Shown: piece by piece, positions 11,791 through 59,482 of the stretch | How positions within the stretch are numbered: the stretch's first letter is position 1 | Layout: every line of letters begins with the position of its first letter | NCBI GenBank assembly: GCA_030704615.1 | Contig: CM060731.1 | Location: 40,548,001-40,612,000, forward strand | Direction of reading: 5' to 3' | From: Takakia lepidozioides | Taxonomy: Eukaryota; Plantae; Bryophyta | DNA: 64,000 nucleotides | Notes under the pieces: generated by a model | Seen by the model: only the letters and a program-made list of their open reading frames with translations | Databases searched by the model: none | What the model was told of the DNA's origin: nothing | Translations under genes and position numbers: made by a program

Positions 11791-13064
11791 TTGGGTTGCC
11801 CGGCCGTTGGATTGGTTGTGACAGTAGGAGGCTGGTGCAATTGCAGTAAAGCATGGAAGGATTGGAAGATATAAGTAGACGGCCCTTAATAATGGTGTTG
11901 AGGCTGGGTAGTCCGTGATGGGCATGCTATGTACATGATTGTTACGTCACATACGGGTGGTGTTGTGAATTGTACAGGGGACTCGGACTCAAGGAGTCGA
12001 TTCTGCTGGGAAGAAAAGGATTTTGGTCTGCAGATTGGATAGTCCATTCCGATTGTACATTCCGCCCGTCAAACTTGCATAATAACGTGGAAAGTTTAGG
12101 TTTCAGGCTGTCATGTGTGCTTGATGTGAAATGGTTGAGTGGAATGGTAAAATCTCTGAGAATGTAACAGGCTCGAGACAAACTCGAGAGCTGGACCCTG
12201 CAAGTAGAGGGGGGAATTATGACTTCAACTTTCGCTTAGGTAGAGAGGCTGGGGACAAAGTCAAAAGCTGGACTCGGCAGGTGAAGGGGAGTTTTCTTCT
12301 GGTTTTCTTTCTGATCTCTTGTTGTGCCTGGTGGATACGTAGGATTTTTTTTGTGCGGATACTCTCTTATTGTTATTCATTCAATCTCCGACCCTTCTCT
12401 CTTCTCCCTGTTTGTGGTGTGATTACGGTCAGAACGGCAGAACCGCTCCCAATAGTCGGAGGTGAATACTCACTGTAAGTGGATGTCGTCTAAGTTCTTG
12501 CAGAAAATTCTGAAAGTGGCCAAAATCAATGGGAAATCCAATTCCCTTGAAAGCCATGATGATGCTATTTAATATGCCTGTTTGATTCATTGGTCAACAT
12601 CGTGTTTTTGAGCAGAGTAGGTGAAGTTGAAGTAGAGGGGGTTTGCAGGTATGGGGCCCAAGAGTGCCTCTCTCTTCAGACAAGGAAATCTACAGAGATT
12701 GTTTTTTCCTACATTTCAGACGTGTGTAGTCCATGTCACTCATTGTCTGTTTGATCAAAAAAATTCAGAGATGCTAAACAGACCCCTAGGGGTGGTCATT
12801 CAACCTGACATGAGGCCAGTAGTTGTCACAGATTTCTTTTACAAAAAGCATATCAATAATGAGGCAGCTGCTGCAAAGCTGTGTAGCCAGCCAAATCTGT
12901 TCTTGACCCATATTTCCGCTACCAGTTTCAGAGTTGATCTTGCTATGTTGAATAAGGGCATTCTAGGATAACTTTCTAAATTCTTCTGCTTGACATAGAG
13001 GCTTAGCATCTGACATGAGCTCTCTTGTGTTGACCAATATTCGATGTTGATTTTTCACCACTGT

Positions 13065-13755
13065 ACTCAGGAGATACCTGCCAGCATGCAGAAAGACAGC
13101 TCTATCAGGAAACCATCTGTTGAGTACTTCCCAAAAATCTGGTAGGAAGTACAGACCTGGAACACTGTACTGGTTGCTCCAAAAGATTAGCCAGGGTATG
13201 CGTCTGAGAAGCTTCTGCTCTGCTGGACAGAAGAAGCGAAGGTCTTGTTTTGGGCTGAGATTGGACAGTTTTGTAACTAAGTGCTTTGGTGTGTTGAAGA
13301 TTTTCCCACTATTTGTATCTTCTGTGGTTCCATTTTCTTTCACCAGGTTCAGAGCTCTGTCATAGAACAAGCCATGGTTCTCAGACTGCTTTCGCACAGC
13401 AGCTTCAGGAAAGCCTTGAGGCACCAACCATAAGGAGTCAGGAAATGGTTCACACAGCAGGTGCTGCGGGCTGGCCTCAGGAGTGATCAACATTGCTCGT
13501 CGGTTATCAAAGAATACACAAAAACCGACACCGAGCTGATTTTCCTTTCCATCAAGACTCTTCCATATCACGTACTGGCATCCATCTGGTGGCCTCCCTT
13601 CCAACAGCATCTTTGTCAGATCATGGCCATGCACGCATCTTTGGTGCAAGGCCTCATAGTCTCTCAGAGCAGATAGAAATGGAGTAGATGGGGTGTAGTT
13701 TGTGGCTCGCCAAAAGCAATGTTGCTCATACTTGCTTCTGCAGCTTGGATGGCTC
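13065..13755 (-). pseudogene. Truncated GT37 fucosyltransferase copy
   Basis: Near-identical to 39255-39954 of the intact FUT gene, but missing both ends and carrying small indels near 13500-13545. Confidence 0.9.
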
Positions 13756-13771
13756 AACTGGAAGCACTGGT

Positions 13772-13826
13772 CAACCGCTTTCACCACTTCCAACATGGGG
13801 TCTGTTCTTGTGGGGATTACTGGTGA
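13772..13826 (+). pseudogene. Isolated DYW-domain C-terminus (NRFHHFQHGVCSCGDYW*)
   Basis: Direct translation; near-identical to the last codons of the PPR-DYW gene at 49695-49749. Confidence 0.88.
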
Positions 13827-14289
13827 AGCACGCAGCATCATGCAAGATAAACCAATTCAAGTTCGGTGACCAAGCTGGAAGTTGTTTGAGTTCTCCAGAA
13901 ATACACAACTCAGATTTGGTGGCCAAACCTGATTCTTACAAAGATTATAATGAAAATAGTTGTTAGACTCGTGTTTTCAAAAGATGGAATGGACCCTTTA
14001 AAGAGCACAAGACACATACCGCCTACTACCATAAAGGTATCAAACTAGATTAGAACAAGCAGCAAACTGCAAAAGGCTGTGGCAATGCATACAAACATAT
14101 CCAAAATATACAAACATGACACACACACATACCTTTGTGTGGTTTTCAGAATTCTTCCAACGGAAGCCTAATCTCTTTGTATGGTGGTTTCCTAATGTGG
14201 TTCATATGACAGTGTACAACATGCCACTAGTGTTATAAGTATAACAATTTAAGGATAATAACTTTTGTTGCAAATTCTCAGTAACAACC

Positions 14290-19447: not shown

Positions 19448-19795
19448 ACCATCTACCCATGGAGGTTCCTTGTACCTATCCTTCCACTGTGTTCCACATG
19501 GAATCATAGCTAATCTGGAGCTTGAAATCCGGCCCTCTTGGATGAATCTGGACCCACACTCTATCCCTGCTCCTTCAGCTATCCATGCCTCTGCACAAAT
19601 CATGCATACATCCTTGCCTTGCTGCTAGCAGCTGACAATGACAGCCTAGAATTGTTCCAGCAAACATCCCAACCCTACTTATCAGACTAGTTCCTATGCT
19701 GACTGCGTCTGCTTCCATCAGGCATTCACCTTTTTGCCTCGATTGTTCTACCATTGACTGGGATCGGAAACATATTCATTCCAGAGCTTCTCCTC
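19448..19795 (-). pseudogene. Copy of the OSB-type PDF-motif exon-intron-exon module
   Basis: LWNEYVSDPSQW*NNRGKK|intron|IHPRGPDFKLQ; near-identical to 44640-44980. Confidence 0.7.
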
Positions 19796-20437: not shown

Positions 20438-21015
20438 TACTAGGGTAGCCTGGGCCGTTGGCCCAAGTGTCCAATGTCATCTATGTGCAATCCTCCCTGT
20501 ATGCAAGTGCGTCTCCTATGTCGAGGCCAGAATGCGACCTCTAGGGTAGCATGTGCCCTGGCCCAAGTGTCAAGTGTCATCTAAGTCCAAGTGTAAAATC
20601 TTCTATGTATCCCAATGCGTCTCCTATGTCGCGGGCCAAGTGCAACCTCTAGGATAGCCTGCACCTTTGGCCCATGTGTGAAGAATTGAAAATCTAAGAC
20701 CAAGTGCAATTTCCTATATTGTATCCAATGCGTCTCCTATGAGCCCCATATAAGCCCAAGTACAATCTTCAATTTATGTATCTAAGTGCATCTCCCATGT
20801 AGAGGCCCAAGTGTCCAATGTCATGTAACTTGCCCAAGTGCAATCTCCTATGTATCGAAGTACGTCTCCCATGTCAAGGCCCAATTTATTTTTTCCATTA
20901 ATTTATTGAGTAGTAGTATATCCATTCATTATTGATATATCTCCTCTTATGTCGAGGCCCAAATTCGACCTCTAGGGTAGCCTCTGCCGTTGGTCCAATG
21001 TCATCTAAGTCCAAA
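20438..21015. repeat. Degenerate tandem/satellite-like repeat (about 60-120 bp modules)
   Basis: Recurring motifs GCCCAAGTGTC(C)AA, GCGTCTCCTATGTCG(A/C)GG(G)CC and CGACCTCTAGGGTAGC. Confidence 0.7.
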
Positions 21016-22074
21016 TGCATTTATTTTTCCACAGAGCCTAAGACCACATTACCTTTCCCTTGATATATCTCCCGTCAAGGCTCCAACCATTGTCCCAGAA
21101 ATGCCCACTTTGCCATTTTTGCTATTTTTCATGAAATTAATTTCCAACGACCAAAAGCACTTGGAATTCCACATCTCCCACACCGCAGGTCCAAAAATCA
21201 TGAGACCAAGCCCGTGCACCCCTCCTCGTCGAGGGCTTTCCAACGGTACCAAGCACCATCGCTGGGGCCTGCAGTTTGGGACATCTCAACGTGACAAAAC
21301 AAAACAAAACAAAACAAACAAATTACTAGCTTCCTTCATATATTGATTTTGTTACCCCACTTTCCTGCACAAAAGCAGCGCACATCAGGAAAATGTTAGG
21401 AAAGATTCAACATTTTACTTCGGACAATCTAGGAGAAAACTGCTTGTGAGCTTGCTCATCTTAAAGGCGACGTAACATAAAGTTCTGCCGCATCTGACTT
21501 GCTATATCTAGTCAACAATACGCTTCACAATATCCATGGCCACCAGTTTCAACAAGTATTCTCCAACTGGTTGGGGTTAGAGCCAAAATTTGAAACAAGG
21601 GATCAGACTGGCTACCACTTCAAACGACTGATGCCGCAAGCCCAGGTCGTCTAACTCGTCTAACAAGCACAGTTCAGGGCTTCGAGTACATGAATGACAA
21701 TTCCATACAGCACATTGCTTCAAATGAATGAGACACGAGAGAAGTATAATTTACCCTTGAGTTTCTTTTCGTCCTCCCTGCTAATCTGAACTCTGACAAC
21801 CACATCACACACATCAAAAGTGGGTGGCATAAGCTCATGAGTCTCTCCACCATGCAACAAATTGTAATTATTCTAGTCCCCGAGTGACGAGGAGCATCAT
21901 GATCAAGAGATTGCGGGCCGCCAGTCAACATCATCGGGGCCTAAGCTTCAACAGGTTCCATCTGCATGCAACTACTCTTTTGGGGGAATTTTCTTGCAGC
22001 AACATGTTTTCTAGATGTTGGGTCCACTGTTCCAAACATTCTGCTATGCTTCCAAGAGTTGATCACGTTTCGCA

Positions 22075-23665
22075 TGTCAAGTTATTTTACCACTAGTGTG
22101 AAACTAGCTAGGAAATAGCTAGCTTTTACATATTGACATTTGGGATTGGCCCAAGTGTCAATCCAGGGGTCAAGGCATATTTAGGCCCTGGAGTGGTTAT
22201 CTTCACGGCAAGCGCGGAAGGCTCATCTTTCTCGAGTTGAGCCTCACCGCGCCTAGCTATGGCGCCGTAGTGTGGATTCCCCATGGCGTGGGGTGCACTT
22301 GGCTTGACTTGTATTTGAGTGATGAGGTTATATATGCATGAGTTTATGCTTCAGCTTTGTGAGCTCGCATGAGCTTGTGCTTGTATTCTTCTTCTTTATC
22401 ACTCGAGAAAGATGAGCTCGTATCTGTGAGTGCCAGATATGAGTTAGTTGTAGCACTTGTGGTTTTTGCTTGAGAATGAGAGAAACCAAGTTGTTATGCA
22501 AGGAGCACCGTGGAGCTATTGGTTGTTAGAAGCGGAGGCGATGTGGGTTATGAGGTGGTAGACCTTGGCATTCGATCTTCAGCTTCAGAGATGAAAGCAC
22601 CATGCTGCAGGTAATTCCAGAGCACCTTGATGGTTTCAGATTGTGTACATGCATGAGCAAGCACGATTGGGAAGAGGACCAGTCAAGAGCAGGTTATAGT
22701 GGCTTTGGTGGCAAAGCTGAGAACTGGACTTGGGAATGCGAGCTTTCATTGTGTGAAGGATTGCAAGACCAAGCGAAAGGGCTGATTTGGCTTGGGGCAA
22801 ATCAGTGCACTTTGTGGAGTATGGTGAGATTGGGTTTCAATCTCGAGCTTCAGCATTGAGAGGGCTCTTGTCATGGCAAGAGCAGGGCTGGAACAGGAGC
22901 TAAGAGGTGCGGCAAGGCCATGGAATGTGCATCTAGGGTTTCAGAGCTTGGAAGAAGAGCTCTTGCACCACAAGAGAAGTGTCTTGTGGCTGGAAATGTA
23001 AGCCTTAGGGTTTCAGGAGCTTGGCAAAGGCTGTGGAGTGCTTAGTCTTGTCTTAGAGAGCATCAAGGAGCCAAGGAGCCAAGATAGGGGGCTGATATCT
23101 CTTGTGTGAAGAGGTTGCATGTGTGGAGCATGTATTCAACTCATTGAAGCTTCCATCTTCAAGCTTGGAGGGCAAGCAAGGAAGAGGGAAGGGCTGACTT
23201 CCCTTATGTGAGGGCAATGCATATGTGGAGCATGCTATCAGCCTGGTGAAGGCTTGCACTTTCAGATGTGGGAGTGCAAGAAAGGAAGGAAGGGGTTGGT
23301 TTCCCTGTAGGGCATGTGGAGCATGCTTTCAGCCTGCTGAAGCTTGTATTTTCAGGTTTGTGGGTGCAAGAAATGAAGCAAAGGAGCTGATTCTCTTATG
23401 GTGAGAGTGGGGCATGTGTGGAGCATGCCTTCAACCCATTGAGGCTCTTGTTTTCAAGCTTTAGAGAGCTAGAACGGAAGGTCTAGGGCTGGTTTCCACT
23501 TGGAGTGAAAGAAAAGCACTTGTAGGGCTTATGTGAGTTGGGGTTTCAACTTCAAGCTTGAAGGGAGCGCAACTCTTGAAGCAGCAGGTGTAGGGGGCTG
23601 GAATAGGCTCTAAGATAGATGCTATGGCCAAGGAGAGTGCTTGAATGAGTGCTCACAAGGGCTGG
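22075..23665 (+). repeat. Left long inverted terminal repeat (about 1.59 kb)
   Basis: Reverse complement of 31167-32651; the match ends at ...CACAAGGGCTGG (23665). About 5 mismatches in the outer 160 bp by eye, more divergent inward. Confidence 0.93.
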
Positions 23666-23934
23666 GAACCAGCAGGGCTTGGTTGTTTGCCATTGAGTTT
23701 GGTGGTGTGTTTGAGGAGGCTAAGTGAGAAAGAAGGTTTGGTTTGTGGCAACCACCTCATGGCTTAGGGCTACTATGGTGGTGTGTGGGAGCCAAAAGAG
23801 CAAGAATACCTTGCTGATTTCCTCACAGCCGCCATAGCTCGGTGGAAAGAAGCCTAGAGTCCAAGAGACACAAACCCTAGCTTGGCGTGGCTAAACCCCT
23901 TGGAGAAATGGCTAAACTGCCAGAGCGGCCATGG

Positions 23935-24486
23935 ATGGGGCTGTGACGGGCTGTGCCGGTGGCCTTTTGGGGCTGTGAGGGGCTGTGACAGGCCGTGCCT
24001 GAGGCCTTTGGGGCTGTGAGGGGCTGTGGCGAGCTGTGACGGGCTGTGCGGGGCTGTGACAGGCTGTGCCCAGTGGCCTGTGGGGCTGTGATGGGCTGTG
24101 AGGGGCTGTGCCCATGGCCTTTGGGGCTGTGATGGGCTGTGAGGGGCTGTGACAGGCCGTGCCTGAGGCCTTTGGGGTTGTGAGGGGCTGTGAGGGGCTG
24201 CGCCGGTGGCCTTTAGGGCTGTGCCGGGCTGTGCCGGTGGCCTTCGGGGTCGTGACAGGCTGTGAGGGCCTGTGACAGGCTACACCAGTGGCCTTGGGGG
24301 CTGTGAGGGGCTGTGAGGGGCTGTGTCGGTGGCCTTTTGGGGCCGTGACAGGCTGTGCCCATGGCCTTTAGGGCTGTGATGGGCTGTGAGGGGCTGTGAC
24401 GGGCTGTGAGGGGCTGTGTCAGGCCGTGCCTGAGGCCTGTGGGGCTGTGACGGGCTATGAGGGGCTGTGACAGGCCGTGCCTGAGG
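23935..24486 (+). repeat. G-rich minisatellite of GGGCTGTGA(G/C/T) decamers with higher-order spacers
   Basis: Dozens of GGGCTGTG units interleaved with CCGGTGGCCTTT, CAGGCCGTGCCTGAGGCC and CCCATGGCCTTT. Confidence 0.93.
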
Positions 24487-26065
24487 GCAGAGAGGACCTC
24501 AGATGCAGGGGTCTCTCCCTTCATTTGCTGGCCAACAACGGGCGGATGTGGTGTGCTGGACATGTGGAGGACCCCATGTCAAGAAGGATTGCCCAGAGGG
24601 AGGCAAAGGGCCGGCACATGCACAGCCTGCACAGTTGCAGTGTGGGCATTGTGGCAAGCATGGGCATGGAGAGGCCCAGTGTTATGGTTTGCATCCTAAG
24701 TTGCGCCCAGGCCAGTTCCAAGGGAACAATGGTGGCCGGGGGCGAGGTGGAGCAGCCCAGAGAGGACGAGGTGGCCAGCCACGAGGTGCAGGCCAAGGGC
24801 AAGCTCAACATGGCTAAGGACGCGGAGGTCAAGATATTGATCAAGGCATGGCCAACCGGCTTCAGCAGCTAGAGCAGAGGCTTGCTGCCATGGCTACAGC
24901 TCAGGTGGTACCGGCTCTAAGGCCGGATGGTCCACCTCCTGCTCCTGAGGGAGGAGATATGGGAGGCATGGGATTCATGTATGGAGCAGCACTACCACTA
25001 GTGCAGGTGGAGTCTGCTGCAGCCGTGACTCAAGGAGCAGCACGAGTTCCTGAGCCATGAGGTGCAGAGGTGGAGTTGAATCCACAGCGTGGGGAGGCAA
25101 GCCGTCAGGCTAGGCTTCCTCAGTTATTCACATTGGCGGAAACAGTGTCGACGCCATCCATGGCACCTAGTTCTCGCCCGACTGTTACCGAGGCGGAGGT
25201 TACTATGCCATTGGGGAGAGCTACACGGGTAGCACCACTACCTAGTGTCGCCAAGGCTACGACAGCTAGTGTGCTGCTAGGAGCGGCCACATCTGTGTGT
25301 CAGGCTCCATTGTTCTCAGCTACCATGATTGCGACGCCGGGGGTAAGACCAGCTGAGGTGTGCAGGCTGGCAGCTACACTCTGTGAGAAATGGGAGGTTA
25401 CTTCATCTTCTGCGGAGATACTAGGAGGTGTAGTGCCGGAGGGATCCTCGGATTTGAGGATCAAGACTGCCACGGCGGCGCCATGGCAAGCTGCAGCTGC
25501 CAGGTTGATGGAGCTGCCAGCTAGGCCAGCCATTGAGCGCGCCATGGTGACACCTGGAGTTGTCATGTTAGACAACCAGGATGGCATTTTCTGTTTGAGT
25601 GGACCGGCAGGGAAGAAGTACCGGCCACTGCGGGTCTTGTTGGACTCAGGAGCTCAGCCACTGATGCTGGGCAGAGCTGCTATTGCAGGCTTGGGTCTCA
25701 CGGAGGCGGATATGGAGCCTTGTCTTTTCCAGATACAGACGTGTCTGGGAGGATCGGAGCAACCTCGGGGCATGACACGGCATGAGTTGTCTATCAGACT
25801 ACGGCCGGATCACCCTACAGATGGCTCAGTGATGCGAGCCAAGGCCATTGTGACAGACGCGGTCTCATACGATGTCCTGGTTGGTGGGGCAGTGTTGTAC
25901 CCCATGGGCTTCACCCTGGATTTTTGGGAGGAGTCACCTTCCTATAGGCATGCATGGCAGTCAGGGGAGGGCCGGCATGTGCAGCTCCCTGTGACGTTCA
26001 TAGGAGGAGTTGCGGTTGCCCAGCGAGGCAAGATGCCGACACTAGCAGGCAGTGAGTTGGCCTAG
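24485..26065 (+). pseudogene. Retroelement Gag C-terminus (two zinc knuckles) and aspartic protease
   Basis: CWTCGGPHVKKDC and CGHCGKHGHGEAQC knuckles followed by an RGG-rich tract. Protease motif VLLDSGAQPLMLG and later YDVLVG. In-frame TGA at 25058; Gag N-terminus missing. Confidence 0.8.
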
Positions 26066-26329
26066 AGAGTTGCTTGAGGGCAACGCTCATTCAAAGGATG
26101 TACCACCTCCGGGAGAGCAGGATGATATGTATGGTATGGCGGAGTTGCCTACCATGGTTGCTCAGACTCCATTGTGGGGCACGAGCAAGGATTTGCAGCG
26201 GGATGCTGATCGACGGGTGCAACAAGCCTGGGTGGAGGCTTTTGTACCGTCAGGAGAGGAGGAGAGTGCGGGGATTGCACCAGGACCACCTCAATTGTCT
26301 CCATTGGACACCACACCTATTGTGTGGCA

Positions 26330-27300
26330 ATATCCGGATGAAGGCATTTGTCTTCTGGACTTGTTTGGCGGGATCAGCACCGTATTGGCTGCTGTGTTAC
26401 AGGCAGGTATACGAGTTTGGCGTTACCTGTATGTGGAGAGGGATGAGACTGCACGACGCGTTTCACTTCGTCATGTTGCTTAGTTGGTGCAGCGGTACCC
26501 TGAGTTGTTGTCGGTGTCTGCAATTCGTGGATATCAGCAGGCCTTGCCAGCAGACATTTCGTTGCTGGGGGCGCAGGATTTGGAGCGGGTTGGCTCCATT
26601 GATCTGGTAGTGGCAGGTTGGCCCTACCAAGGGCATTCATCAGCCGGGCATGGCAATGGATTGCGAGACTCGAGGTCGGGTCTGTTTTGGGAGATGGTGC
26701 GGGTTTTGCGCCACTTGCAGCTTCATCAAGTTGTATCTCCAGCATACATCTTGGAGAATGTGCCACTGAAGGGCGATTCTCGGGCCAGGGTGATGGCCAG
26801 TGTGCATCAAGTCCGGTCGTGGCTTGGGTCAGCAGTGTTGCTAGATGCAGCTACAGTGGGGTCACGGGCTCATCGTCCACGGCTATGGTGGACTAACTTG
26901 ATGCCACCCGCACTGCTCAAGCGTGCATTTGATGGGGTGCAGCGGCCAGCACATCTCACAGTGGATAACATTCTGGACACAGGGAGGCAGTCTCAGCGTG
27001 TGAGACACGATGACCGTTCGCCTTTGGCAGTGGTCAACAAGGTGGGTCAACCACGAGCAGCATTACCTACACTGCTCAGCTTCCCAGGATCGTATGCTTT
27101 CCGAGATAGTGGACCTGGCCTCCTATGGGATGCTCAGTTGCAGCAGTTAGTGGAGCCTAATGCTGAGGAGCGTGAGCGGGCAATGGATTTTACCATTGGT
27201 ACCACGGCGGTGTCGTCTCTTTCTGAGGCATCACGTCGTCAAGTGTTGGGGCAAGCAATGGATCTCAATTGCTTGACTTGGATTATCAGCTTGGCTCTGG
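26330..27300 (+). pseudogene. C5 DNA (cytosine-5) methyltransferase domain inside the retroelement polyprotein
   Basis: Motif I LDLFGGIS, II YVERD, IV VAGWP[Y]QGHS (catalytic Cys codon is TAC at 26625), VI YILENV, VIII AHRPRLWWTN, IX-X ERERAMDF...RRQVLGQAMD. In-frame TAG at 26481. Confidence 0.9.
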
Positions 27301-27753
27301 CTAAGCAACGCAGAGTGCGGAGTACACTTCCCTCAATGGTCTCTCTGCCTACCGAGACGGTATAGGCAGTGAGTGGGGGCGAGCATGTGAGGACCACGGG
27401 GTGCATGCATCCATGGCACACGTGGGAGGTGCTCGAGGTTCAGAGAGAGTTGGCAGCCAAGGCGGCTGTGATGGATGAGGTTGGGGATTCTTCTCGGGTT
27501 GAGGAGGTCCTCAAGGATGAGATGATGGGGCTAGGATGAGGCCTTGTCATTGACTGAGCAGGCAAGGAGTACTGCTCAAGAGGTTGCAACATAGCAACCA
27601 CTGGACGCGTCCTCTACCTCTAAGCCCACTGGACTTAAGGTTGCAGTTACGGAGGACAATTGGGAGCCTAACATTGGATCCATTTTCACCGGAGGAGAGA
27701 GACGACGTACACGGCGGTTCCTAAGGGTTTACAGGAATTGCTTTACCTTCAGT

Positions 27754-29343
27754 TTGAAGGACTTGGGAGCACTGAAGGGTCAAGAGATCCGTATTGAGTT
27801 GGCCACTGACACGCCAATCTTTCGGAGACCCTATAGATATAGTGACATGGAGAGGTCTTTGATTCAGATGAGGACTCAAGATCTCTGGGAGGCAGGTTTG
27901 GTGGAGCTCTCTGGTGGAGAGTATGCTTCAGCCACAGTGATGCCAGCCAAGAAGGATGTCTATGGCAATTGGACGGAGAGACGTATGTGCGGTGATTACC
28001 GGCCTGTAAATCGTCAGACCAAGTCCGATAAGTATGCCATGCCAACACCAGAGGAGATCTTTGATGCCATCGGGCATGCTAAGGCCTTTAGCACTTTGGA
28101 TTTACGATCCGGATATCACCAGTTGCCAATCAAGGAGGCGGACAAGCAGAAGACGACATTCTGGGGGATCAATGAGCACGACAAGGATTGCCTATATCAG
28201 TGGCGGTTCTTACCATTTGGGCTTAAGAATGCTCCTGCAAAGTTTCAGAGAGTCATGGATAGGATTCTAGCAGGGGTGGATTTTGCTCGGTGCTACATAG
28301 ATGACATCATCATCTTTAGTGTTACGATGGAGGAGCATGAGAGACACCTTCAGGTGGTATTGGAGCGCTTGAGAGCGCACGGATTGAAGTTGCATCCGGG
28401 GAAGTGCAAGTTTTTCCACAACCAGATTGAGTATCTGGGTCACATGATATATCCTGGAGGATTGGGGGTACAGCAGACTAAGGTAGAGGCCATTGCACAA
28501 ATTCCACGCCCCACGGATGTGAGCCGAGTTCGAGCTTTCATGGGGTTGGCAAACTATTATAGACGGTTTGTCAAGGGATTTAGTACCATTGCAAAGGCTC
28601 TAACCAAGCTGACCAAGGTGGACCAGGAGTGGCAGTGGGAAGATGAGCAGGAACGAACTTTTCAAGAGCTCAAGGCGAGGTTGACCTCGGCGCCTATCCT
28701 GAGACGACCTATTAGGGGGCGTCCCTTTCAGCTGCATACGGATTGGAGCATGCTGGGGCTTGGAGCGGTGCTCACACAGGTGGATGATGAGGGAAAAGAG
28801 TTCGTAGTGGCTTATGCTAGCCGCTCGAACAACGCTGCAGAGGCTAAGTACAGCTCATATGAGGGAGAGTGCTTAGCTGCAGTGTGGGCCGTGGCACACT
28901 TCAGGTGCTATCTATACGGCAATCTTTTCACCCTTGTCACGGATCACCAGCCACTCAAGTGGTTGATGGAGTCATACAAGCTTACGGGGAAGCTTGCACG
29001 GTGGGCACTCATACTCCAGGAGTATGACTTTCAGGTTGTGCATCGACCAGGTTTGGTCAATCGGGATGCGGATGGATTGAGTCGCAATCCATGCATGAGC
29101 CAGCAGGATGACACAGGAGCTCGGTGGCATGGTGAGACGGACGAGGAGATGGTGCCGGGATGGCACGCATTTGCATTTTTGTGTATCTTGGCATCGGGAG
29201 GTCAGGTTGGACCTACAACAGGGATGACTGTAGACGGAGTGTCTGAGGACCCTGAGGCTAGTGATGAGCCAGGTGGTGCCAGAGATATGAGGATTTTGCT
29301 GTGTTGGACTACCTCCGCACGGGAGATACGGCAGCCACTGTGA
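27754..29343 (+). pseudogene. Ty3/Gypsy reverse transcriptase and RNase H
   Basis: RMCGDYRPVN, FSTLDLRSGYHQ, LPFGLKNAP, YIDD (28294), YLGH, FMGLANYYRRFV. RNase H HTDWS..GLGAVL, YSSYEGECLAAVWA, TDHQPL, NRDADGLSR. Confidence 0.95.
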
Positions 29344-29414
29344 CTGCCAGGGAGAGGGATCGGATCCTGCAACGAGCCAAGAGGTTCAAGTGGGAGGGGA
29401 TACACCTACTTTGA

Positions 29415-30725
29415 GTGTGGGAGGATGGTCGGGTGAGGATTGTGCCTCACCCCACACAGCGTGCACGGTTAGTGCGGCATGCCCATGAGGAGTTGGGGCA
29501 TTTTGGAGTGCGACGCACTCACAGTTTACTGCAGGGGCAGTATTGGTGGCGTGGTATACATACAAAGGTGCAACAGTTCGTGGCTAGGTGCATGGTGTGT
29601 GACAGGGTGCGTGCTTCATTCAACGCCCCTACACCACAGTTGCATCATTTACCAATCATGGGATTGGGCTACAGGTGGAGTCTTGACTTCGCAGGACCGT
29701 TGCCACTGACTATGCGCCACCACAGATATGTGTTGGTGATGGTGGAGCACTTCTCCAAGTGGATTGAGTTGGTTCCATTGCCTGACAAGTCTAGTGAGGG
29801 GGCTGCGTATGCATTCTTGGATCTTGTGCTTAGCCGATTTGGTGCTCCAGCTGAGGTACTCACGGACCAAGGGAGAGAGTTCTTGGGGGAGTTTCAGGCT
29901 TTGTGTGATAAAGCCTTGATAGACCACCGCACCACTTCTCGGGATCATCCTGAGGCCGATGGCTTAGCAGAGAGAGTTGTTCAGACGGTGAAGAGGGGTT
30001 TGCGCAAGTATGGCTTGCAGAAGAGACACCTAGGAGATTGGGATCTTCAGGTTCCTTGGTTAGCCATGGGCTACAGGTTCAACAAACAAGCATCACTTGC
30101 CTCCTTCTCACCATATTTCTTTCTCTTTGGCCGAGAGCCGGATTTGCCTGCAGCCATTTGTAGGGACACTACTCAAGTCTTTAACCTTGACGATCCGGAT
30201 GTGTGGGTACGTGCATGTGATCAGCGTGCAGAGTTGTTCAAGAAAGTCATGCCCATGACTTTTGAGAACCTTGCCATTGCACAGCATCGTGATACGTTGA
30301 GGTATGCCACTATACGTGGTGGAGGATATCGTCCTGGGGTTCGGAGGGTTACCCCTGGTGACTATGTTTATTTGCAGCAGACTGCTCGTACGACTCTGGA
30401 TGTTACTGCAAGGCGTGTTATTCTGAGGGTTCGAGAGGTGTTGCCCTCAGGGGTCCTGATCTTAGAAGGTCGGGATGGCATGACTTGGAAGGACCATGTG
30501 CGTAATTGTGTGCCATGTCACCTTCCCAATGTCGATGGCAGAGTTGACCCAAACTTGGCAGTGGTACTTGCAGGTTTGAGGTGCATGCTCTGTGGGTCTG
30601 CCAAAGGGGCAGCCACCATGCTGGTGTGTGATCGATGCTCAAGGGGTTGGCATATGGGATGCTTGACACCACCTCTTGAGAAGGTTCCTGACGGAGATTG
30701 GTTGTGTCCACACTGCTTGGGATAG
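29415..30725 (+). pseudogene. DDE integrase with C-terminal PHD finger
   Basis: HHCC (HEELGHFG...CMVC), D (WSLDFAGP), D (LTDQGREF), E (GLAERVVQT). C4HC3 PHD CMLC...CDRC...HMGC...CPHC at 30582-30716. Confidence 0.93.
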
Positions 30726-31166
30726 TGGCAGTGGACATGACTGGAGGCAGCTAACAAGACATGGGAGGCCAAGCTCATATGAGTCAATACATGAGATCCC
30801 AAGCTCAAGTTCACAGGTTGCAAGACGGCGACTAACGATGGGGCAACTCTTGCACCCGGCCTCTTGATCTATCGAGTTTGAGTGTAGTAGGGATAGTGGT
30901 GGAGGACTTAGTGAGGCTATGGTCACTATCACATCTTGTGGCTACCTGGACTAGTGGACTAGTGACTGCCATAGTGGGCAGCATAGTGGCAGCCTAGTGA
31001 CTGACTAGTTGTAGCCTAGTGGTTGGACTAGTGGCTGGACTAGTGGTGGACTAGTGGTATACTAGTGTGTGGTGTGCACATGTGTTGTGTGGTTTTGGAC
31101 AGCGATGTAGTTGTGTAGCGATATGTATGCGCACGACACGCATCATGGAGAAGCGAAATAGGTCTA

Positions 31167-32651
31167 CCAGCCCTTGTGAGCACTCATTCAAGCGTTTCCC
31201 TTGGCCATAGCATCTGTCTTAAAGCATATTCCAGCCCCCTATACCTGCCACTTCAAGAGCCATGCTCTATCTAGACTTGAGGTTGAAACCCCAACTCAAA
31301 ACACGCTCTACAAGTGTTGGACTGTCACGTAAGAGCAGATCAGCCCCTTACCTTCTCTTCTAGTCCTCTAAAGCTTGAAAACAAAAGCCCAATGGACTGA
31401 AGGCATGCTCCACACATGCCCCACTCTCACCACCAGAGAATCAGCCCCTTTGCTTTCTTTCTTGCACCCACCAACCTGAAAATACACGCTTCAGCGGGCT
31501 GGAAGCATGCTCCACACATGCCCTACATGGAAACCAGCCCCTTCCTTCCTTTCTTGGTTGCCCTTCAAGCTTGAAGATGGAAGCTTCAATGAGCTGAATA
31601 CATGCTCCACACATGCAACCTCTTCACACAAGAGGTATCAGCCCCCTATCTTGGCTCCTTAGCTCCTTGATGCTCTCTAAGACAAGACTAAGCACTCCAC
31701 AACCCTTGCCAAGCTCTTGAAACCCTAAGGCTTACATTTCCAGCCACAAGACACTCCTCTTGTGGTGCAAGAGCTCTTCTTCCAAGCTCTGAAACCCTAG
31801 GTGCACATTCCATGGCCTTGCCGCACCTCTTAGCTCATGTTCCAGCCCTGCTCTTGCCATGACAAGAGCCCTCTCAATGCTGAAGCTCGAGATTGAAACC
31901 CAATCTCAGCATACTCCACAAAGTGCACTGATTTGCCCCAAGCCAAATCAGCCCTTTCGCTTGGTCTTGCAATCCTTCACACAATGAAAGCTCGCATTCC
32001 CAAGTCCAGTTCTCAGCTTTGCCACCAAAGCCACTATAACCTGCTCTTGACTGGTCCTCTTCCCAATCGTGCTTGCTCATGCATGTACACAATTTGAAAC
32101 CATCAAGGTGCTCTGGAATTACCTGCAGCATTGTGCTTGAAGCTGAAGATCGAATGCCAAGGTCTACCACCTCGTAATCCACATCGCCTCCGCTTCTAAC
32201 AACCAAGAGCTCCACGGTGCTCCTTGCATAACAACCTGGTTTCTCTCATTCTCAAGCAAAAACCACAAAGTGCTACAACTAACTCATATCTGGCACTCAT
32301 AGATACGAGCTCATCTTTCTCGAGTGATAAAGAAAAAGAATACAAGCACAAGCTCATGCGAGCTCACAAAGTTGAAGCATAAACTCATGCATATATAACC
32401 TCATCACTCAAATACAAGTCAAGCCAAGTGCACCCCACGCCATGGGGAATCCACACTACGGCGCCATAGCTAGGCGCGGTGAGGCTCAACTCGAGAAAGA
32501 TGAGCCTCCCGCGCTTGCCGTGAAGATAACCACTCCAGGGCCTAAATCTGCCTTGACCCCTGGATTGACACTTGGGCCAATCTCAAATGTCATTATGTAA
32601 AAGCTAGCTATTTTCTAGCTAGTTTCACACTAGTGGTAAAATAACTTGACA
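31167..32651 (-). repeat. Right long inverted terminal repeat (about 1.49 kb)
   Basis: Reverse complement of 22075-23665, lacking one of the internal roughly 95 bp modules. Confidence 0.93.
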
Positions 32652-33149
32652 CCAGCTACCACGCTTCCCGCACAACAAACTCTCAATAGCAGCTTTTACG
32701 CTTCCACGCAAAACATCTTCTCAAGTACAGCAGCTTCCACGCTTCCCTCTATGTTTGTATATTTTCGTTACCAGAATCTATCAAAAAGTTGATAGATCTC
32801 CTAAACTCACTTTGACTTCGACTCACTGCCACTCTTCCAAGAACAACCTTAGGCAACCACAGACGTTCGTCCCTGTCTGGAGAATCACAACATTTCGGCT
32901 TACTCATTGTATGGGCCAACCTTTTGTGCTTTGTTCTCTCCGGATGGTTTATTGGATAGATTAGATACAATGAAAGTTATCAATTTTTGAATATAAAGTC
33001 ACAAAGCAAAATCGAAATGCATCTCATCTTCAATTTCAGACAAATTCTTGCTTATATCGTTATAGATTCCATCCAATGTCTTAAAAATGCAAAATAAACC
33101 TAACACATAAAAACATAAACGAATATTGTTAAACAAGATATAACGCAAA

Positions 33150-38546: not shown

Positions 38547-40570
38547 CTAGTTCTCATACATGCCAATGCCCCATTGATGCAGACAATGCCTAACTTCAGG
38601 AACAGTGGTGTCAACATTGCCAACCCCTATACCAGGGGGGTCCATTGGGCAAGGCATCTCCTCTGGGTGGTCCATGAAGCAGGGCCCTGGCAGATTTGTG
38701 CGGCTGCACAAGGGGTCAGGCAGCTTCTCCTCATTGAGTCCATATTGCAGAAACACAGTGGGTGTGATGCCTGCCAGCCCATGTGCCACATGCCCAAATG
38801 TGGAACGAGGTGTAGAGATCACGTCATCCATAAAGCTGAGCAACCACATGTCTGCCAACACTTTCTTTTCATGATCTACCTTCCCAGTCTGCTGTTTCCC
38901 CTCAAAACTGGGGCTAACTACTTTGACCTGACTGCCTTCCACAGTCGGGTATTTGATATACATCTCTGTCAAATTTTCATGGTATTCCCGTCTAAGGGCA
39001 GTTACCAAGACAGCAACCTTGTCTGGAGGGAGGTCAGCTTTTTCCAAATCTTTTGTGGCTGGCAGTGCAAGGGATTCTGAAGTGGTAAGATTGGGAAGGA
39101 GGCCTTTAATTGTGGCACACTTGAATATGTGCATGCTAACCATGGGTAAGTAGTCGTTCCTCCATGTGCGCACTTGGATTCCCAGTCGTCTATCTGCCAC
39201 CGCCAGGTATGCATCATAAAAGCGAGTTATGCGCCCCCATATTTCATTGTTGGGACTCAGGAGATACCTGCCAGCATGCAGAAAGACAGCTCTATCTGGA
39301 AACAATCTGTTGAGTGCTTCCCGAAAATCTGGTAGGAAGTACAGACCTGGAACACTGTACTGGTTGCTCCAAAAGAGCAGCCAGGGTATGCGGCTGAGAA
39401 GCTTCTGCTCTGCTGGACAGAAGAAGCGAAGGTCTTGTTTTGGGCTGAGATTGGACAGTTTTGTAACCAGGTGCTTTGGTGTGTTGAAGATCTTCCCACC
39501 ATTTGTGTCTTCTGTGGTTCCATTTTCTTTCAACAGGTTCAGAGCTCTGTCATAGAACAAGCCATGGATCTCAGACTGCTCCCGCACAGCAGCTTCAGGA
39601 AAGCCTTGAGGCACCAACCATGAGGAGTCAGGAAATGGTTCACACAGCAGGTGCTGCAGGCTGGCCTCAGGAGTGATCAACAATGCTCGTTTGGTTATCA
39701 AAGAGTACACAAAAGCCGACACCAGAGAGATGAGCTGATTTCCCTTTCCATCAAGATTCTTCCATACCACATACTGGCATCCATCTGGTGCCCTCCCTTC
39801 CAACAGCATCTTTGTCAGATCATGGCCATGCACACATCTTTGGTGCAAGGCCTCATAGTCTCTCAGAGCAGCCAGAAATGGAGTAGATGGGGTGTAGTTT
39901 GAGGCTCGCCAAAAGCAATGTTGCTCATACTTGCTTCTGCAGCTTGGATGGCTCTTACTTGCGAGGGACTTGTCATGTGGGTGATACTGGTGCGGGGCTG
40001 TTATCACTTTGCCTGGGAATCCAACAGTCGAACAGTCTGCACAACCCAAGGCTACCGCAAAGTCAGATTGCTTCCTCAATTGCTCAAGGAGGAATTTGGC
40101 TAAATCTATACTCTCTCTGGGCGCGGGCTCTATGGCCACAAGGCTAAGGCAAACAACGTCTTGTGAGTACATTCTCTCCCTGTCACACACACACACACAC
40201 ATACACACACAATGTCACCCAACCGGTCTTCCTTGGAGTCTGGAGACGAGACACAGAATCAGCGACAACCATTTGTCCCATGCCATGCTCAGGATTCTTG
40301 AAGGTAGACTGCTTTGGATTTCTAAACAGTTGAATTCTGGGAATTCACATGAAACAGGAAAAGGTGAGATGGTCATCAACTACCAATGTCGTTGGGGCCG
40401 ATGAGGCGGCGTCTGTTAGGAGTGGCAAGGGGCACCGCCAGGCTCTGATGCATGACGTCAATCAGGCTAAGGAAGGCCACAAACAGGCCTAGCAGGCCGA
40501 GGAAGAAAAACCGTGCGCACCAACTGGTCGGTCTGCATTCGACTTCCTTCTTCACCCGCCCAGAAACCAT
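38547..40570 (-). CDS. FUT: GT37 xyloglucan/galactoside alpha-1,2-fucosyltransferase (exons 40570-40384, 40012-38547)
   Basis: Type II membrane anchor in exon 1. SCRSKY, LRDYEALHQRC, GKGNQLISLVSAFVYSLIT, LLCEPFPDSSW, FFCPAEQ, RLGIQVR, LADMWLLSFMD..STPRSTFGHVAHGLAG. Phase-consistent GT-AG intron. Confidence 0.92.
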
Positions 40571-40782: not shown

Positions 40783-41200
40783 AAGCGTGATGAGACTGCG
40801 TTTGCAGCAGCTGCCAAGATTCAAACCGAACGCTCACTCACATGCCACCGTATTTCCCTTGTACAGGTGCTACCACCACGCTTCCTCCTTGGGGCGGCCT
40901 CATTGTAATTTTGACTTAATTTTATTGACCCTACTAGACCCTCTGACTTGTCACAATATATGTATACCGTACCTGCCTACGCTGTCCGACATTAATTAAA
41001 TAAAAAAAGGGGTTGTCAAAAAACAAATTTGTCCTTCCTATGCCGGAATTCCAGGATATTCGAGAACCCAAACCCAAGCACACTACCACTGTGCTACCCA
41101 TCCACTTGTGCTTAAAGACGACTTTTATTTCGAGAAAGACTGCCGGACCTCTTTTGCAAGAAAAAATAACTATTCCGCCAGACGCTTGACGAACTACATA

Positions 41201-41495
41201 GGCAAGTGCGGTATATATATAAAGGAAACCTGGGAGCGACAGCCCACAATTCAGGCAAGTGCGGCATATATGTAAAGGAAACCTGGGAGCGACAGCCCAC
41301 AATTCAGGCAAGTGCGGCATATATGTAAAGGAAACCTGGGAGCGACAGCCCACAATTCAGGCAAGTGCGGCATATATGTAAAGGAAACCTGGGAGCGACA
41401 GCCCACAATTCAGGGCAGGGCAGGGCAGCGGGTTTGAAACCCCAAACCACGAAGGCGACACAATGTGCACTTACCAGCTGAGCTACTAGCGGATG
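41201..41495 (-). mobile_element. tRNA-derived SINE-like head followed by four tandem 53 bp units
   Basis: Minus-strand A-box TAGCTCAGCTGG and B-box GGTTTCAAACCC. Units start at 41201, 41254, 41307 and 41360 on the + strand. Confidence 0.7.
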
Positions 41496-43707: not shown

Positions 43708-44150
43708 CTTGCAAAAATCAGGAGAGACAGGTCAGTCATTCTCACAGACAGCGAGTTCCTGCTTCACCTTCTTCAAGCCATTGCTTACAGCTTGCATATC
43801 TTCAGTTAACAACTTCAGCTGGATCTGCAACAAACAAAATAACACACACCAGTTAGGTTTGATCTACTTTCCCCAATGCAGGCATGGATATGTACATTAC
43901 TCACAATGCCTGTCTATCATTTGACTTGTCCCGTTCGCAACCTTGTTGATAGACTAGAGATGGAGAGGTCAGAAGCACCAGAAAAACAAACATAGCTTCA
44001 AAGATATTTGAAAATTTGGGGCATGTTTGTCAAACTACACATGGATAAGAAGCTGGGTGGAAGGAGACCCACCTTAGTTGCAGCTTCCAAGTGTGGCAGG
44101 TCTTTATGGAAGTCCAGCAAATTTGGCATCCTGTCAGCTACTACCTACAT
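43708..44150 (-). pseudogene. Class II formin FH2-domain fragment
   Basis: VVADRMPNLLDFHKDLPHLEAATK and IQLKLLTEDMQAVSNGLKKVKQELAVCEND*PVSPDFCK, resembling plant FH2 (LEAASK|IQLKSLAEEMQAISKGLEKV), with an in-frame stop. Confidence 0.78.
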
Positions 44151-44155
44151 GATCA

Positions 44156-45545
44156 CTGGACCCACACTCTATCCCTGCTCCTTCAGCTATCCATGCCTCT
44201 GCACAAATCATGCATTCATCCTTGCCTTGCTGCTAGTAGCTGACAATGACAGCCTAGATTTGTTCTAGGAAACACCCAATCACACGAGTTCCTATGCTGA
44301 ATTGCGTCTGCTACTCTCTGTAATCTAACAGGCATTCGACTTTGTGCCTCGGTTCTCCCACCATTGACTGGGGTCAGAAAAGTATTCATTCCACAGCTTC
44401 TCCTCATCTCTGTTACCTGTTTTGGGATACTTTCCTGTTGTCACATTGGCAGTATCATGTCAAAGTCACTCCAAACTATCAAAGATTCACTCAACCAGCT
44501 AACTTGCAGAATTCAACATGAAAATTTAGGGCTGATTCTGATAAGAGGGAAAAACAGGGTGAAATGTGTTGATGAAGGTGCCTTGATCAGCAGTGCCTGA
44601 TTTTATCAATTGTGCCGCCGCTGCTGCGGCTTCCAGTTGACCATCTACCCATGCGGGTTTCTTGTAGCTACCCTTCCACAGGGAATCGTAGGTAATCTGG
44701 AGCTTGAAATACGGCCCTCTTGGATGAATCTGGACCCACACTCTATCCCTGCTCCTTCAGCTATCCATGCCTCTGCACAAATCATGCATACATCCTTGCC
44801 TTGCTGCTAGCAGCTGACAATGACAGCCTAGAATTGTTCCCAGCAAACACCCCAACCCTACTTATCACACTAGTTCCTATGCTGACTTGCGTCTGCTTCC
44901 AACAGGCATTCACCTTTTTGCCTCGATTGTTCCACCATTGACTAGGGTCGGAAACGTATTCATTCCAGAGCTTCTCCTCGTCTCTGTTATCTGTTTTCCG
45001 ATACTTTCCTGTTGCCACATTGGCAGTAACATGTCAAAAACACTCCAAAACCACCATAGATCCACAAACGAGCTAACTTGCAGAATTCAACATGAAAATT
45101 TAGGGACAACTCTGATAACAAGGGAAAACAGGGTGAAATGTGTTGAAAAAGGTGCCTTCATTAGCAGTGCCTTGTTCTATCAATTGTGCGGCTGCCGCTG
45201 CTGTTCCTTGACCTTGTGTCATGACCCATGGAGGATTTGACCGACCATCAACCCAAAAGGACCTCTTGTGTGTGCTGGTTGTGTCTGTAGTAGGTAATGT
45301 CGGATTGACCACCACGGTGCAGCTGAGCAGGCTAAAACCAAGCTGACTCTCCCAAGAACCTTGTAAACATCAGGAAGAATACCAAATGATGGTACCAACA
45401 GGAGCCAAGAGCCCACATTTGCAGGATGGACATTCTTCACATCGTACATTAAGAAAAGCCACACCTTGCGATTGCGGTTGTCCCACCATCGTGCAAATAG
45501 CTGTGAGAGCTCCTGCGGTGTACTCATAATCTGCAAATGTCTCCA
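44156..45545 (-). pseudogene. Three tandem exon-intron modules encoding OSB-type PDF motifs
   Basis: [11 protein letters not shown]|..SFWVDGRSNPPWV, then EEKLWNEYVSDPSQWWNNRGKK|IHPRGPYFKLQITYDSLWKGSYKKPAWVDGQL. The third module is truncated at its acceptor site. Resembles the PDF motif of organellar ssDNA-binding proteins. Confidence 0.65.
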
Positions 45546-45973: not shown

Positions 45974-46755
45974 ACTGTCATGTAAGTTGTCGCTTGGTAG
46001 CAGCTTCCCGAATTATGCTTCGTCGGACAATCTGTGGAGAGTAGCAGAATGTAGTCTCTGAGAAACGTCTCCAAAATTTTAGATTTTTTCCAGTGTCACT
46101 GCAGTAGTTTTAAGCTCTGGCCCATTGCCAGGGGGGGCTTGGAAGGCCTTACGGACGTTCGGAGGGGAGAATTGCAGTCTGGGTAGTGGGGTAATGCAGA
46201 CTTATAGTAGTCCTGCAACTCACCTAGTCTGCCTACAGGTCATTTGTTGTTTGTTGTGTGAAAGAGAACCCTCACAATCTTTAGTTGGCCTACTGTTAGG
46301 GTGCCTTGGACAACAGATTATAGGTGTTTTGTGGGTAGGAGACATTAATTTCACGAGGGATCTCAAGGTTGGATATTTTCTTTCAAGTCCTTTGGAGGGA
46401 GAGAATGTACTCCTATGATGTTGGCTGCCCTTTGGAGGGAGGGAGGGCGAGAGAGAAAGATCCAGTTGTGGATAAATGAACATTCATGTCTTGTTATTCT
46501 GAGAAGAAGAGAACTTAAATGAGTGGGATTTAGATCTATATCTGTGATTATTTTCTCCATTGAGCGTCCTTGTGGATTGAAATTGTCAAACTCTGCTTTG
46601 CTCACTCTGAGCTGAAATTCTGAGAAAACAAAGACAACAAGATGCATTGAAAAACTTTGTTGCAAATTGTCTTCCTTCCTTTCTCCTCAGCAAATCAGCA
46701 TATGAACTAGTGTGTGAGAAGTAGGGTTGTGGTGTTTGCTAGATAATTTTTTAGC

Positions 46756-59300: not shown

Positions 59301-59482
59301 ACCTGATGGATGGATCTGATGGTTTGCTTCCTGGCGCTGGGTCTCAATTTGGAAGAGATTTGAGGAGGGACATTGGCAGTACACTGCCAGGTGACCCGAT
59401 GGGAGGATCTGATCTTTCACTTCCAGGAACACGTCATCACTATGGAAGAGATCTGGGAACACACCCTCGAGACGATTTCTGA
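56321..59482 (+). CDS. SKIP22: F-box protein of SKIP22/FBXO7 type (Ubl - PI31/FP - F-box - Pro/Gly-rich tail); exons 56321-56587, about 57371-58177, 58499-59482
   Basis: Ubl LKVRVR..FRLSLNKKDEI..LSSFGVINGDLLF; FP domain LVLAVHAVMLETGF; LWQEVKDNLSLPLL; F-box LLPTELKIKILECLP; IGGDYDRFP. Confidence 0.85.

Follow-up and report, generated by a model that had tools for sequence, protein, structure and literature searches.

A degenerate Gypsy-type retrotransposon of the bryophyte Takakia lepidozioides carries a DNMT3-like cytosine methyltransferase and belongs to a high-copy family

Introduction

Retrotransposons encoding DNMT3-type C5 cytosine methyltransferases (DNMT) constitute an element class known from algae, and the systems closest to the element described here are KnitGypsy-Dnmt3 of Klebsormidium nitens and the SymbioDIRS-Dnmt3 elements. 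According to the accessible text of PMC5890265, the SymbioDIRS-Dnmt3 domains methylate CG sites de novo, and KnitGypsy-Dnmt3, the Klebsormidium enzyme, gave no methylation in yeast, a result that its authors call inconclusive. Such elements are said, in the accessible part of PMC6338049, to be absent from land plants such as tracheophytes, and later papers, as far as their accessible text goes, speak of 'streptophytes' and cite the Klebsormidium work (PMC12344493; bioRxiv 10.64898/2026.05.21.726589). Further, the sequence UAG-CAR-YYA is the readthrough signal of tobamoviruses and is also effective after UAA, as stated in the accessible portions of PMC3542737 and PMC5382211.

In this work, we present a 64,000-nt stretch of the Takakia lepidozioides genome (assembly GCA_030704615.1, contig CM060731.1, positions 40,548,001 to 40,612,000, forward strand), hereafter the window, in which an original prediction had placed a retrotransposon polyprotein with an embedded C5 methyltransferase. 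Within it lies an inactivated member of an abundant bryophyte family of Gypsy-type retrotransposons, which carries a DNMT3-like C5 methyltransferase.

Results

Limits, class and parts of the element

The element spans 22075-31138 on the forward strand and is bounded by a 4-bp target duplication, CGCA, read directly from the sequence. Its domains follow the Gag-PR-RT-RH-INT order of Ty3/Gypsy elements with a DDE integrase, and its TG...CA ends and short target duplication are those of the same group; two complete direct LTRs are lacking, as the repeats are split, or A and B are unpaired. Strong Pfam matches were obtained for RT, RNase H, integrase and PHD, and a weak one for the protease; no tyrosine recombinase family was matched on the element ORFs scanned, where an rve integrase was found instead. 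The presence of Gag in the polyprotein, which had been predicted, was recovered for the C-terminal zinc-knuckle part only, with no match to a Gag N-terminus anywhere in the 64-kb window. The features are the following, in window coordinates:

22071..22074, no strand: left target-site duplication CGCA (direct reading; equals 31139-31142)
22075..22401, forward: repeat A, the 5' end, beginning TGTCA (depth increase; sister-contig joints; terminus common to other families)
22220..22237, forward: predicted self-primer within A, complementary to the stretch directly after A (17/18 Watson-Crick pairs)
22401..22418, forward: putative primer-binding site where A ends, lacking a TGG tRNA-type site (pairing and fold)
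22419..24486, forward: long leader with sub-repeats of ~100 nt (the Gag N-terminus, expected next, is absent in the window copy)
23937-24486, forward: GGGCTGTGAC tandem array inside the leader (repeat analysis)
24515..24901, forward: Gag remnant with two Cys/His zinc knuckles (tblastn with Marchantia P0124; translation)
25532..26002, forward: aspartic protease, LLDSGAQ at ~25640 (weak PF13650 match, E 0.022)
26310..27317, forward: DNMT3-like C5 cytosine methyltransferase, broken (PF00145, ordered motifs, profile, fold of a relative)
27318..27591, forward: linker, interrupted by a stop (27363) and shifted in frame near 27532 (both lesions missing from most sister contigs)
27592..27600, forward: predicted readthrough site, in-frame TAG then CAA CCA, CARYYA (stop conserved across the clade)
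27670..29034, forward: RT with YIDD, then RNase H, in an uninterrupted frame (PF00078, PF17917, PF17919)
29430..30314, forward: integrase, H2C2 and rve (PF17921, PF00665; in the window copy the frame shifts near 29286 and meets a stop at 29412, both upstream)
30555..30725, forward: C-terminal PHD finger and final stop (PF00628, E 1.5e-10)
30830..30862, forward: 3' UTR motif common to distant families (window, L064, L097 and L088; 4/11 sequences scanned)
30954..31138, forward: repeat B, with CACGACA as its last bases, closing the window copy on the 3' side (sister-contig loose ends at 30952 and 31138)
31139..31142, no strand: right target-site duplication CGCA (direct reading)
31167..32651, reverse: second, truncated family copy (A and leader) in opposite orientation (identity to 22075-23665 of 97% in the outer part and 80-91% in the inner part)

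Sister contigs have loose ends upstream of 24484. In the window copy, a frameshift near 26040-26052 parts the protease from the DNMT; furthermore, the purine tract found upstream of B in relatives is absent from this copy, and its B is not followed by a second A-B. The second, truncated copy lies outside the CGCA duplication and creates the false look of long terminal inverted repeats; these inverted arms of ~1.5 kb were rejected as such, given the CGCA duplication and the depth end at 31138. CCAG stands at both ends (31167-31170 and 32652-32655) of the inverted truncated copy, which is separated by 28 nt from where the main copy ends, and is possibly the target duplication of an aberrant one-ended insertion, or a chance occurrence; two insertions at one spot may reflect targeting. 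Regarding the 3' UTR motif, it is located at 30830-30862 in the window, 6818 in L064, 10111 in L097 and 8348 in L088, in UTRs that are otherwise unrelated, and it folds to a hairpin in all four. It is a possible packaging or dimer signal. An Rfam search gave no match.

A DNMT3-like methyltransferase domain

The motifs LDLFGG, VERD, GWPYQ, LENV, AHRPRLWWTN and ERERAM..RRQVLG are found in one forward-strand frame, and the whole C5 methyltransferase motif set lies where it had been predicted, between protease and RT on a single strand. Motifs I, IV, VI, VIII, IX and X are ordered, unlike the permuted order of DRM enzymes. The search with PF00145, proposed as a check, gave a significant match (38.2 bits, E 1.5e-9, cut-off 22). 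A profile built from 22 relatives placed DNMT3A first among PDB entries with 83 bits, DRM reaching 44 and M.HhaI 33, so that the ranking runs from DNMT3A/B/C to DRM, with the bacterial enzymes last. The fold comparison was made on the unbroken relative P0002, not on the broken window copy; the AlphaFold model of this protein (87-row alignment, pLDDT 93.6) had DNMT3A/B/C as its top structure matches. The methyltransferase domain is real and DNMT3-like, a character already suspected from the letters and now seen both by profile and by the fold of the relative. That the domain is element-borne and intronless also agrees with the related loci, in most of which protease and DNMT share one frame (55/66; DNMT-RT, 44/60; RH-INT, 32/35). 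The protein atlas yielded nothing beyond PF00145 clusters, and in viral contigs 51 loci gave short or distant methyltransferase matches, none of which resembles the element domain over its length.

Lesions of the window copy and abundance of the family

In the window, the DNMT is damaged by a stop at 26481-83, by Tyr in place of the catalytic Cys of motif IV (26625-27), and by Val for the last Gly of motif I. The existence of sister copies with an intact catalytic Cys, a check proposed with the original prediction, was confirmed in sister contigs picked without reference to the motif: in run X2 the Cys codon accounts for 187428 depth units out of 187813, and in X5, X6 and X8 for all depth; a count of 31/31 in metagenome loci is biased, as the fetch pattern itself contains Cys. 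In four further contig sets, 94-100% of the depth lacks the stops at 26481 and 27363, the Tyr in place of the catalytic Cys, and the frameshift near 27532. Most lesions are thus secondary, as had been proposed for all stops and frameshifts, with the exception of the TAG at 27592-94, which is conserved in the clade. A reading of 27532 as a +1 frameshift was considered and rejected, since most sister contigs lack the extra base; P0018, a 91% identical protein, stops at the same place as the shifted frame of the window copy, which points to a second lineage with a frameshift at that place.

In run X1, 119625 of 3038600 contigs (~4%) fall on the element, and the summed depth is 0.6-1.2 million over the coding part versus 49-168 in the flanks. 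We read this as a family of thousands of copies, the summed depth itself being no copy number. Among the private transitions of the window copy, 10/14 lie in CHG context against 135/665 of cytosines, with CG sites under-counted because of a 75% filter; the CHG excess is as expected from host CHG methylation.

Relatives and domain orders

Named protein relatives come from Marchantia polymorpha and M. paleacea, Riccia, Calypogeia, Sphagnum, Closterium, Klebsormidium and chlorophytes; vascular plants were not found among the named matches of the protein searches, most matches being without a name. A profile search gave 584 clusters (50% identity) at E <= 1e-30. The metagenome set consists of the best 80 of 302 loci, and these display the order Gag-knuckle-PR-DNMT-RT-RH-INT-PHD. 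A second order, RT-RH-DNMT-INT-PHD, is present in 54 proteins and is chlorophyte wherever named; under both orders the DNMT is kept inside the polyprotein. A one-off host-gene insertion, which the original prediction had set up as its own counter-case, does not fit the sister copies, the relatives in several bryophytes and the same position of the domain in dozens of loci.

Other members of the group display traits of their own. Family F2 (L102, L108-L128), from the same metagenomes, has a DNMT ~40% identical in which Glu replaces Pro before the catalytic Cys (WECQ); it mostly lacks the stop before RT, and its split-repeat ends are mostly long. In Marchantia, P0124, P0209, P0210, P0216 and P0217 are full Gag-PR-DNMT frames of ~1280 aa annotated as host genes, several of them on the V sex chromosome, and such frames could inflate DNMT counts in gene-family surveys. 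P0019, labelled Candidatus Obscuribacterales bacterium, is near-identical to the DNMT of element L088, and is likely a eukaryotic contamination of the genome bin.

Selection and phylogeny

Out of 81 sequences, the 32 free of frameshifts were used to obtain dN/dS ratios. When the window is compared with the Sphagnum-type family, the ratios are 0.12 for DNMT and 0.09 for RT (15 pairs, dS near saturation); for DNMT, they are 0.19-0.25 between other families with estimable dS, and 0.38-0.60 within families, where decay dominates. The ratio near 1 in all copies by which the original prediction could have failed was found neither between families (0.12-0.25) nor within them. By these comparisons, the DNMT domain is under purifying selection.

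RT and DNMT trees of 83 elements, the RT tree comprising DNMT-bearing elements only, are correlated (Mantel rho 0.67), with 24 of the 33 strong RT splits recovered and 1 strong conflict, and in both of them each domain order forms one side of a strongly supported branch. The DNMT co-diverges with the RT. The K. nitens protein GAQ93235.1 (P0385) shares the knuckle-PR-DNMT order and falls among the element DNMTs as a deep branch, as would fit a kinship with Klebsormidium elements; this tree has phage enzymes as sole outgroup and carries a long-branch warning, and the Klebsormidium DNMT is a distant branch in it, not the sister of the window's clade. We infer that P0385 is a KnitGypsy copy.

Possible function of the enzyme

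Judged by analogy, the best reading of the enzyme is that it would methylate newly made cDNA inside the particle or within the integration complex, a reading derived from the CG activity of SymbioDIRS-Dnmt3 and from the proposal of its authors in the accessible text of PMC5890265. Alternatively, the same element could use its DNMT elsewhere, on host chromatin near the insertion or on RNA of the element, or it could employ it in the particle as a protein that binds DNA or serves the structure; we hold this to be unlikely, although it deserves serious attention. Expression at the level of Gag would exceed the need for methylating one cDNA, and the CpG ratio of the element (0.52, versus 0.25-0.44 in the surroundings) reveals no depletion and therefore no footprint of self-methylation. 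The inactivity of the Klebsormidium enzyme in yeast (PMC5890265, accessible text) and the poor alignment of the target-recognition region with DNMT3A point the same way. However, the catalytic residues (Cys, ENV, RxR) are at least 90% conserved over 87 proteins, the related SymbioDIRS-Dnmt3 domains do methylate CG de novo in the same source, and the domain is retained in the polyprotein under both domain orders, all of which speaks against this alternative.

Split repeats, predicted primers and a proposed attachment site

In sister contigs, 31138 continues into 22075 after two bases, and 22401 continues into 30954, which yields the layout A-coding-B-A-B. This layout is complete in 5/35 sequences examined and partial in 4 more; of the five full loci, three have an exact 4-bp duplication, one a duplication with a mismatch, and one (L113) none. 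In the window, self-pairing after A comprises 17/18 Watson-Crick pairs (controls at most 9; fold z -7.05), and 11 or more self-complementary base pairs where A ends were found in 12/19 loci from three sequence-unrelated families, controls again reaching at most 9. In 7/19 loci no self-pairing above controls was found; L088 has an additional 16-nt self-match. A purine run lies upstream of B1 in 18/20 loci, and B1 and A2 are separated by a two-base spacer, GC, GT or AC, in 11/11 true junctions, a count that omits the spurious pattern hits L086, L087 and L102.

The spacer variants would fit the palindrome GACAGCTGTC plus deamination, and the internal palindromic CA-GC-TG site suggests integration of circular cDNA. 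Priming just past A and at a purine tract upstream of B would make B-GC-A the working LTR, with the attachment site inside it; consequently, the A|B joint would mark the joined cDNA ends, and the integrated form would be a circle opened internally. Circle-junction cleavage is a property of foamy-virus integrase and of IS3 transposases.

An origin of these ends with no circular intermediate, in which the unit would be A-coding-B, the extra A-B would be a mini-element or a tandem insertion, and integration would proceed from linear ends, appears unlikely to us. Short A-coding-B forms with duplications are common (window, L067, L076, L083), the paired repeats are only 92-94% identical, barely above the between-copy identity, and one of the two products predicted by the circle model is observed, as no locus has B directly before A1 in the manner of the second product, A-B-A-coding-B. 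These observations would suit linear integration, but a single duplication encloses the entire A-coding-B-A-B in L097, L108 and L120, and the A|B joint coincides with the borders of primer site and purine tract. In addition, the short form would be without terminal redundancy for reverse transcription, and the Klebsormidium element is described with the same layout in the accessible text of PMC5890265.

A conserved stop before the reverse transcriptase

All 35 loci of the window's clade (35/35) retain a stop 21-28 codons upstream of RT, and synonymous sites are saturated among these loci. In this survey, 61 loci were collapsed to 50, 11 being dropped as at least 99% identical, and 30/35 of the clade loci are one family, the independent evidence being five lineages with unalignable linkers. 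The clade stops are followed by CARYY in 33/35 loci, and by the full CARYYA in 5, whereas decay stops are followed by CARYY in 10/510. The contexts are TAG CAA CCA in the window and L053; TAG or TAA CAA CCC in the Sphagnum-type family, which mostly has CAA CCC, short of the full CARYYA, and TAA in 11/30 loci; TAG CAG TTA in L088 and L090; and TAG TAG CCA in L091. In L088, same-frame ORFs of 1369 and 1047 aa are parted by the single TAG CAG TTA. Within the window's own family, the TAG at 27592-94 is not among the listed sister differences, and the X6 change tallies leave no room for a change there, an indirect indication. The Marchantia and Calypogeia proteins stop 92-94 residues beyond motif X. 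Family F2 has no stop before RT in 12/15 loci, so that readthrough is not required by all members; the end of P0018 at the shifted frame likewise speaks against a general occurrence.

The single uninterrupted Gag-to-PHD ancestral ORF that the original prediction had assumed is contradicted by this stop, which in a readthrough context separates Gag-PR-DNMT from RT-RH-INT-PHD in the clade. RT-RH-INT-PHD is likely made only by readthrough of the TAG-CARYYA stop, and, given the conserved stop and its CARYY context, Gag-PR-DNMT is likely produced in excess over RT and integrase. For Ogre-like two-ORF elements, splicing or re-initiation has been proposed. A bypass of the conserved TAG in either of these ways is improbable here: the TAG could act as a 3' splice AG, and the Sphagnum-type family has a T-run before the stop and an ATG two codons after it, but the other four lineages contain 15-28% T, with no T-rich tract and no ATG there, making a splice acceptor less likely. 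Moreover, the linker is an open, in-frame coding stretch, and the conserved bases follow the stop and match CARYYA.

Other features of the window

At 46747-49749, the forward strand encodes a PLS-class PPR protein from a gene free of introns; it has E, E+ and DYW domains and contains 5-6 repeats of 303 nt. This PPR-DYW protein is an organellar RNA-editing factor. Xyloglucan fucosyltransferase is present in two reverse-strand copies (38547-40214 and 12963-13856) that share several blocks of 92-97% identity, and a further fragment of this sequence lies near 49695-49846; identity is 52-56% to proteins of Marchantia, Physcomitrium, Calypogeia and Riccia, and 35-40% to those of seed plants. These genes indicate a land plant as host, with a moss or liverwort as the most likely kind. 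Further ORFs include one with a Sacsin domain (1899-2741, reverse) and PI31-N and F-box ORFs (57347-59482, forward). The repeats comprise a 53-nt tandem array of 98% identity (41200-41414), a 108-nt array (20498-20741), and a dispersed repeat shared by 19492-19795 and 44100-45201, with some similarity to the PPR gene start.

Discussion

A proposed life cycle

Taken together, we favor, with a probability of about 0.6, a model in which the window holds a dead Gypsy copy whose living relatives would make a Gag-level DNMT that methylates their own new DNA, would produce RT-RH-INT-PHD by readthrough, and would have circle-opening ends. Transcription of the element RNA would begin inside A1 and terminate in A2, and most ribosomes would halt after the DNMT while a minority would read through. 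The protease would free the DNMT within the particle. The 5' end of the RNA would then pair just after A and prime the minus strand in the fashion of Tf1, and the purine tract before B would prime the plus strand, the true LTR of the cDNA being the permuted unit B-GC-A. Joining of the cDNA ends would create the A|B junction, and the integrase would open the circle at the internal CA-GC-TG to produce A-coding-B-A-B; the A-coding-B form of the window would stem either from a one-LTR circle or from subsequent recombination of B with B. Finally, the DNMT would methylate the cDNA before or at integration, so that the new copy arrives marked, and the PHD finger may read chromatin at the target.

A more demanding joint reading, which we put forward tentatively and consider rather doubtful as a whole, would see in these elements an old green-lineage class, plentiful in certain bryophyte genomes though overlooked when LTR pairs are sought, with the attachment site within a permuted LTR, a DDE integrase acting on circular cDNA, and a Gag-level DNMT3-type enzyme loaded in particles; newly made copies would be methylated by this enzyme, perhaps at the conserved CpG within the terminal CACGACA, a mark that would settle at which of two attachment sites the cut is made. 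A host DNMT3 retrocopy that landed once in an inactive retrotransposon, or a long-inverted-repeat DNA transposon that took up the region, has a vanishingly small probability despite the 1.5-kb inverted arms on either side of the region, being refuted by the sister copies, by the architecture of relatives with the same DNMT position in dozens of loci of several genera, by the purifying selection on the domain, and by the CGCA duplication and depth drop that set the element end at 31138.

The family is present in mosses and liverworts, including the tractable Marchantia polymorpha, for which genetics and methylomes are available; therefore, the question of why retrotransposons carry a silencing enzyme becomes testable there. 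The conserved leaky stop predicts the dosage of the enzyme, and from the split ends one would expect a DDE integrase that works by opening a circle. As a consequence of these ends, paired-LTR tools would overlook a family that fills ~4% of the contigs of one run.

Comparison with known systems

In the freely accessible literature that was searched, no bryophyte family, no readthrough after a DNMT and no Gypsy element with such ends was found described. Within this scope, the land-plant family, the readthrough-type stop and the proposed permuted self-priming LTR with its internal attachment site would be new; neither of the latter two had figured in the original prediction.

KnitGypsy-Dnmt3 of Klebsormidium nitens shares with the present family the Gypsy domains, an intronless DNMT3-like domain, purifying selection and DIRS-like repeats, as reported in the accessible text of de Mendoza et al. 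2018 (PMC5890265). Of the features of Gypsy-DNMT3 elements, the in-frame intronless domain, the DIRS-like layout and purifying selection are seen here, with the window copy lacking the second A-B. The host of KnitGypsy-Dnmt3 is an alga, whereas the window's family belongs to a land plant and has a far higher copy number; in the same accessible text, the DNMT is put in the Pol ORF, and a readthrough stop, self-priming, a PHD finger and an internal attachment site are not mentioned (PMC5890265). The chlorophyte relatives (Scenedesmus KAF8056149.1, Hariotina) also combine a related DNMT, an integrase and a PHD in one polyprotein, but differ in the order RT-RH-DNMT-INT-PHD and in a motif IV that is often WECQ; DNMT-domain matches were also found in Chromochloris and Cymbomonas.

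DIRS/PAT/Ngaro-type elements integrate as a circle. They employ a tyrosine recombinase, in contrast to the DDE integrase, TG...CA ends and 4-bp duplications of the window element. With this group, which includes SymbioDIRS-Dnmt3, our family shares the A-coding-B-A-B layout and a methyltransferase in the polyprotein, according to the accessible text of PMC5890265. The Ty3/gypsy elements Tf1/sushi and plant Tcn1 are likewise without a tRNA site and predicted to self-prime; they differ by their ordinary paired LTRs and chromodomains, and DNMT and PHD are not mentioned in the accessible part of the survey (PMC6317226).

The UAG followed by CARYYA is shared with Type I readthrough of tobamoviruses, as given in the accessible portions of PMC3542737 and PMC5382211, and, unlike in those viruses, the site here is placed after a methyltransferase, between PR-DNMT and RT. 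Among retrotransposons, stop suppression is also described for SIRE1. As to the EpiLTRs and DAM-LTRs, these are LTR elements with DNA methyltransferases as well; they carry adenine methyltransferases and DNMT4-like domains and are stated, in the accessible text of bioRxiv 10.64898/2026.05.21.726589, to be distinct from Gypsy-DNMT3. The window's family stands on the Gypsy-DNMT3 side of this distinction. The readthrough context CARYYA is also used by SIRE1 and rice RIRE2.
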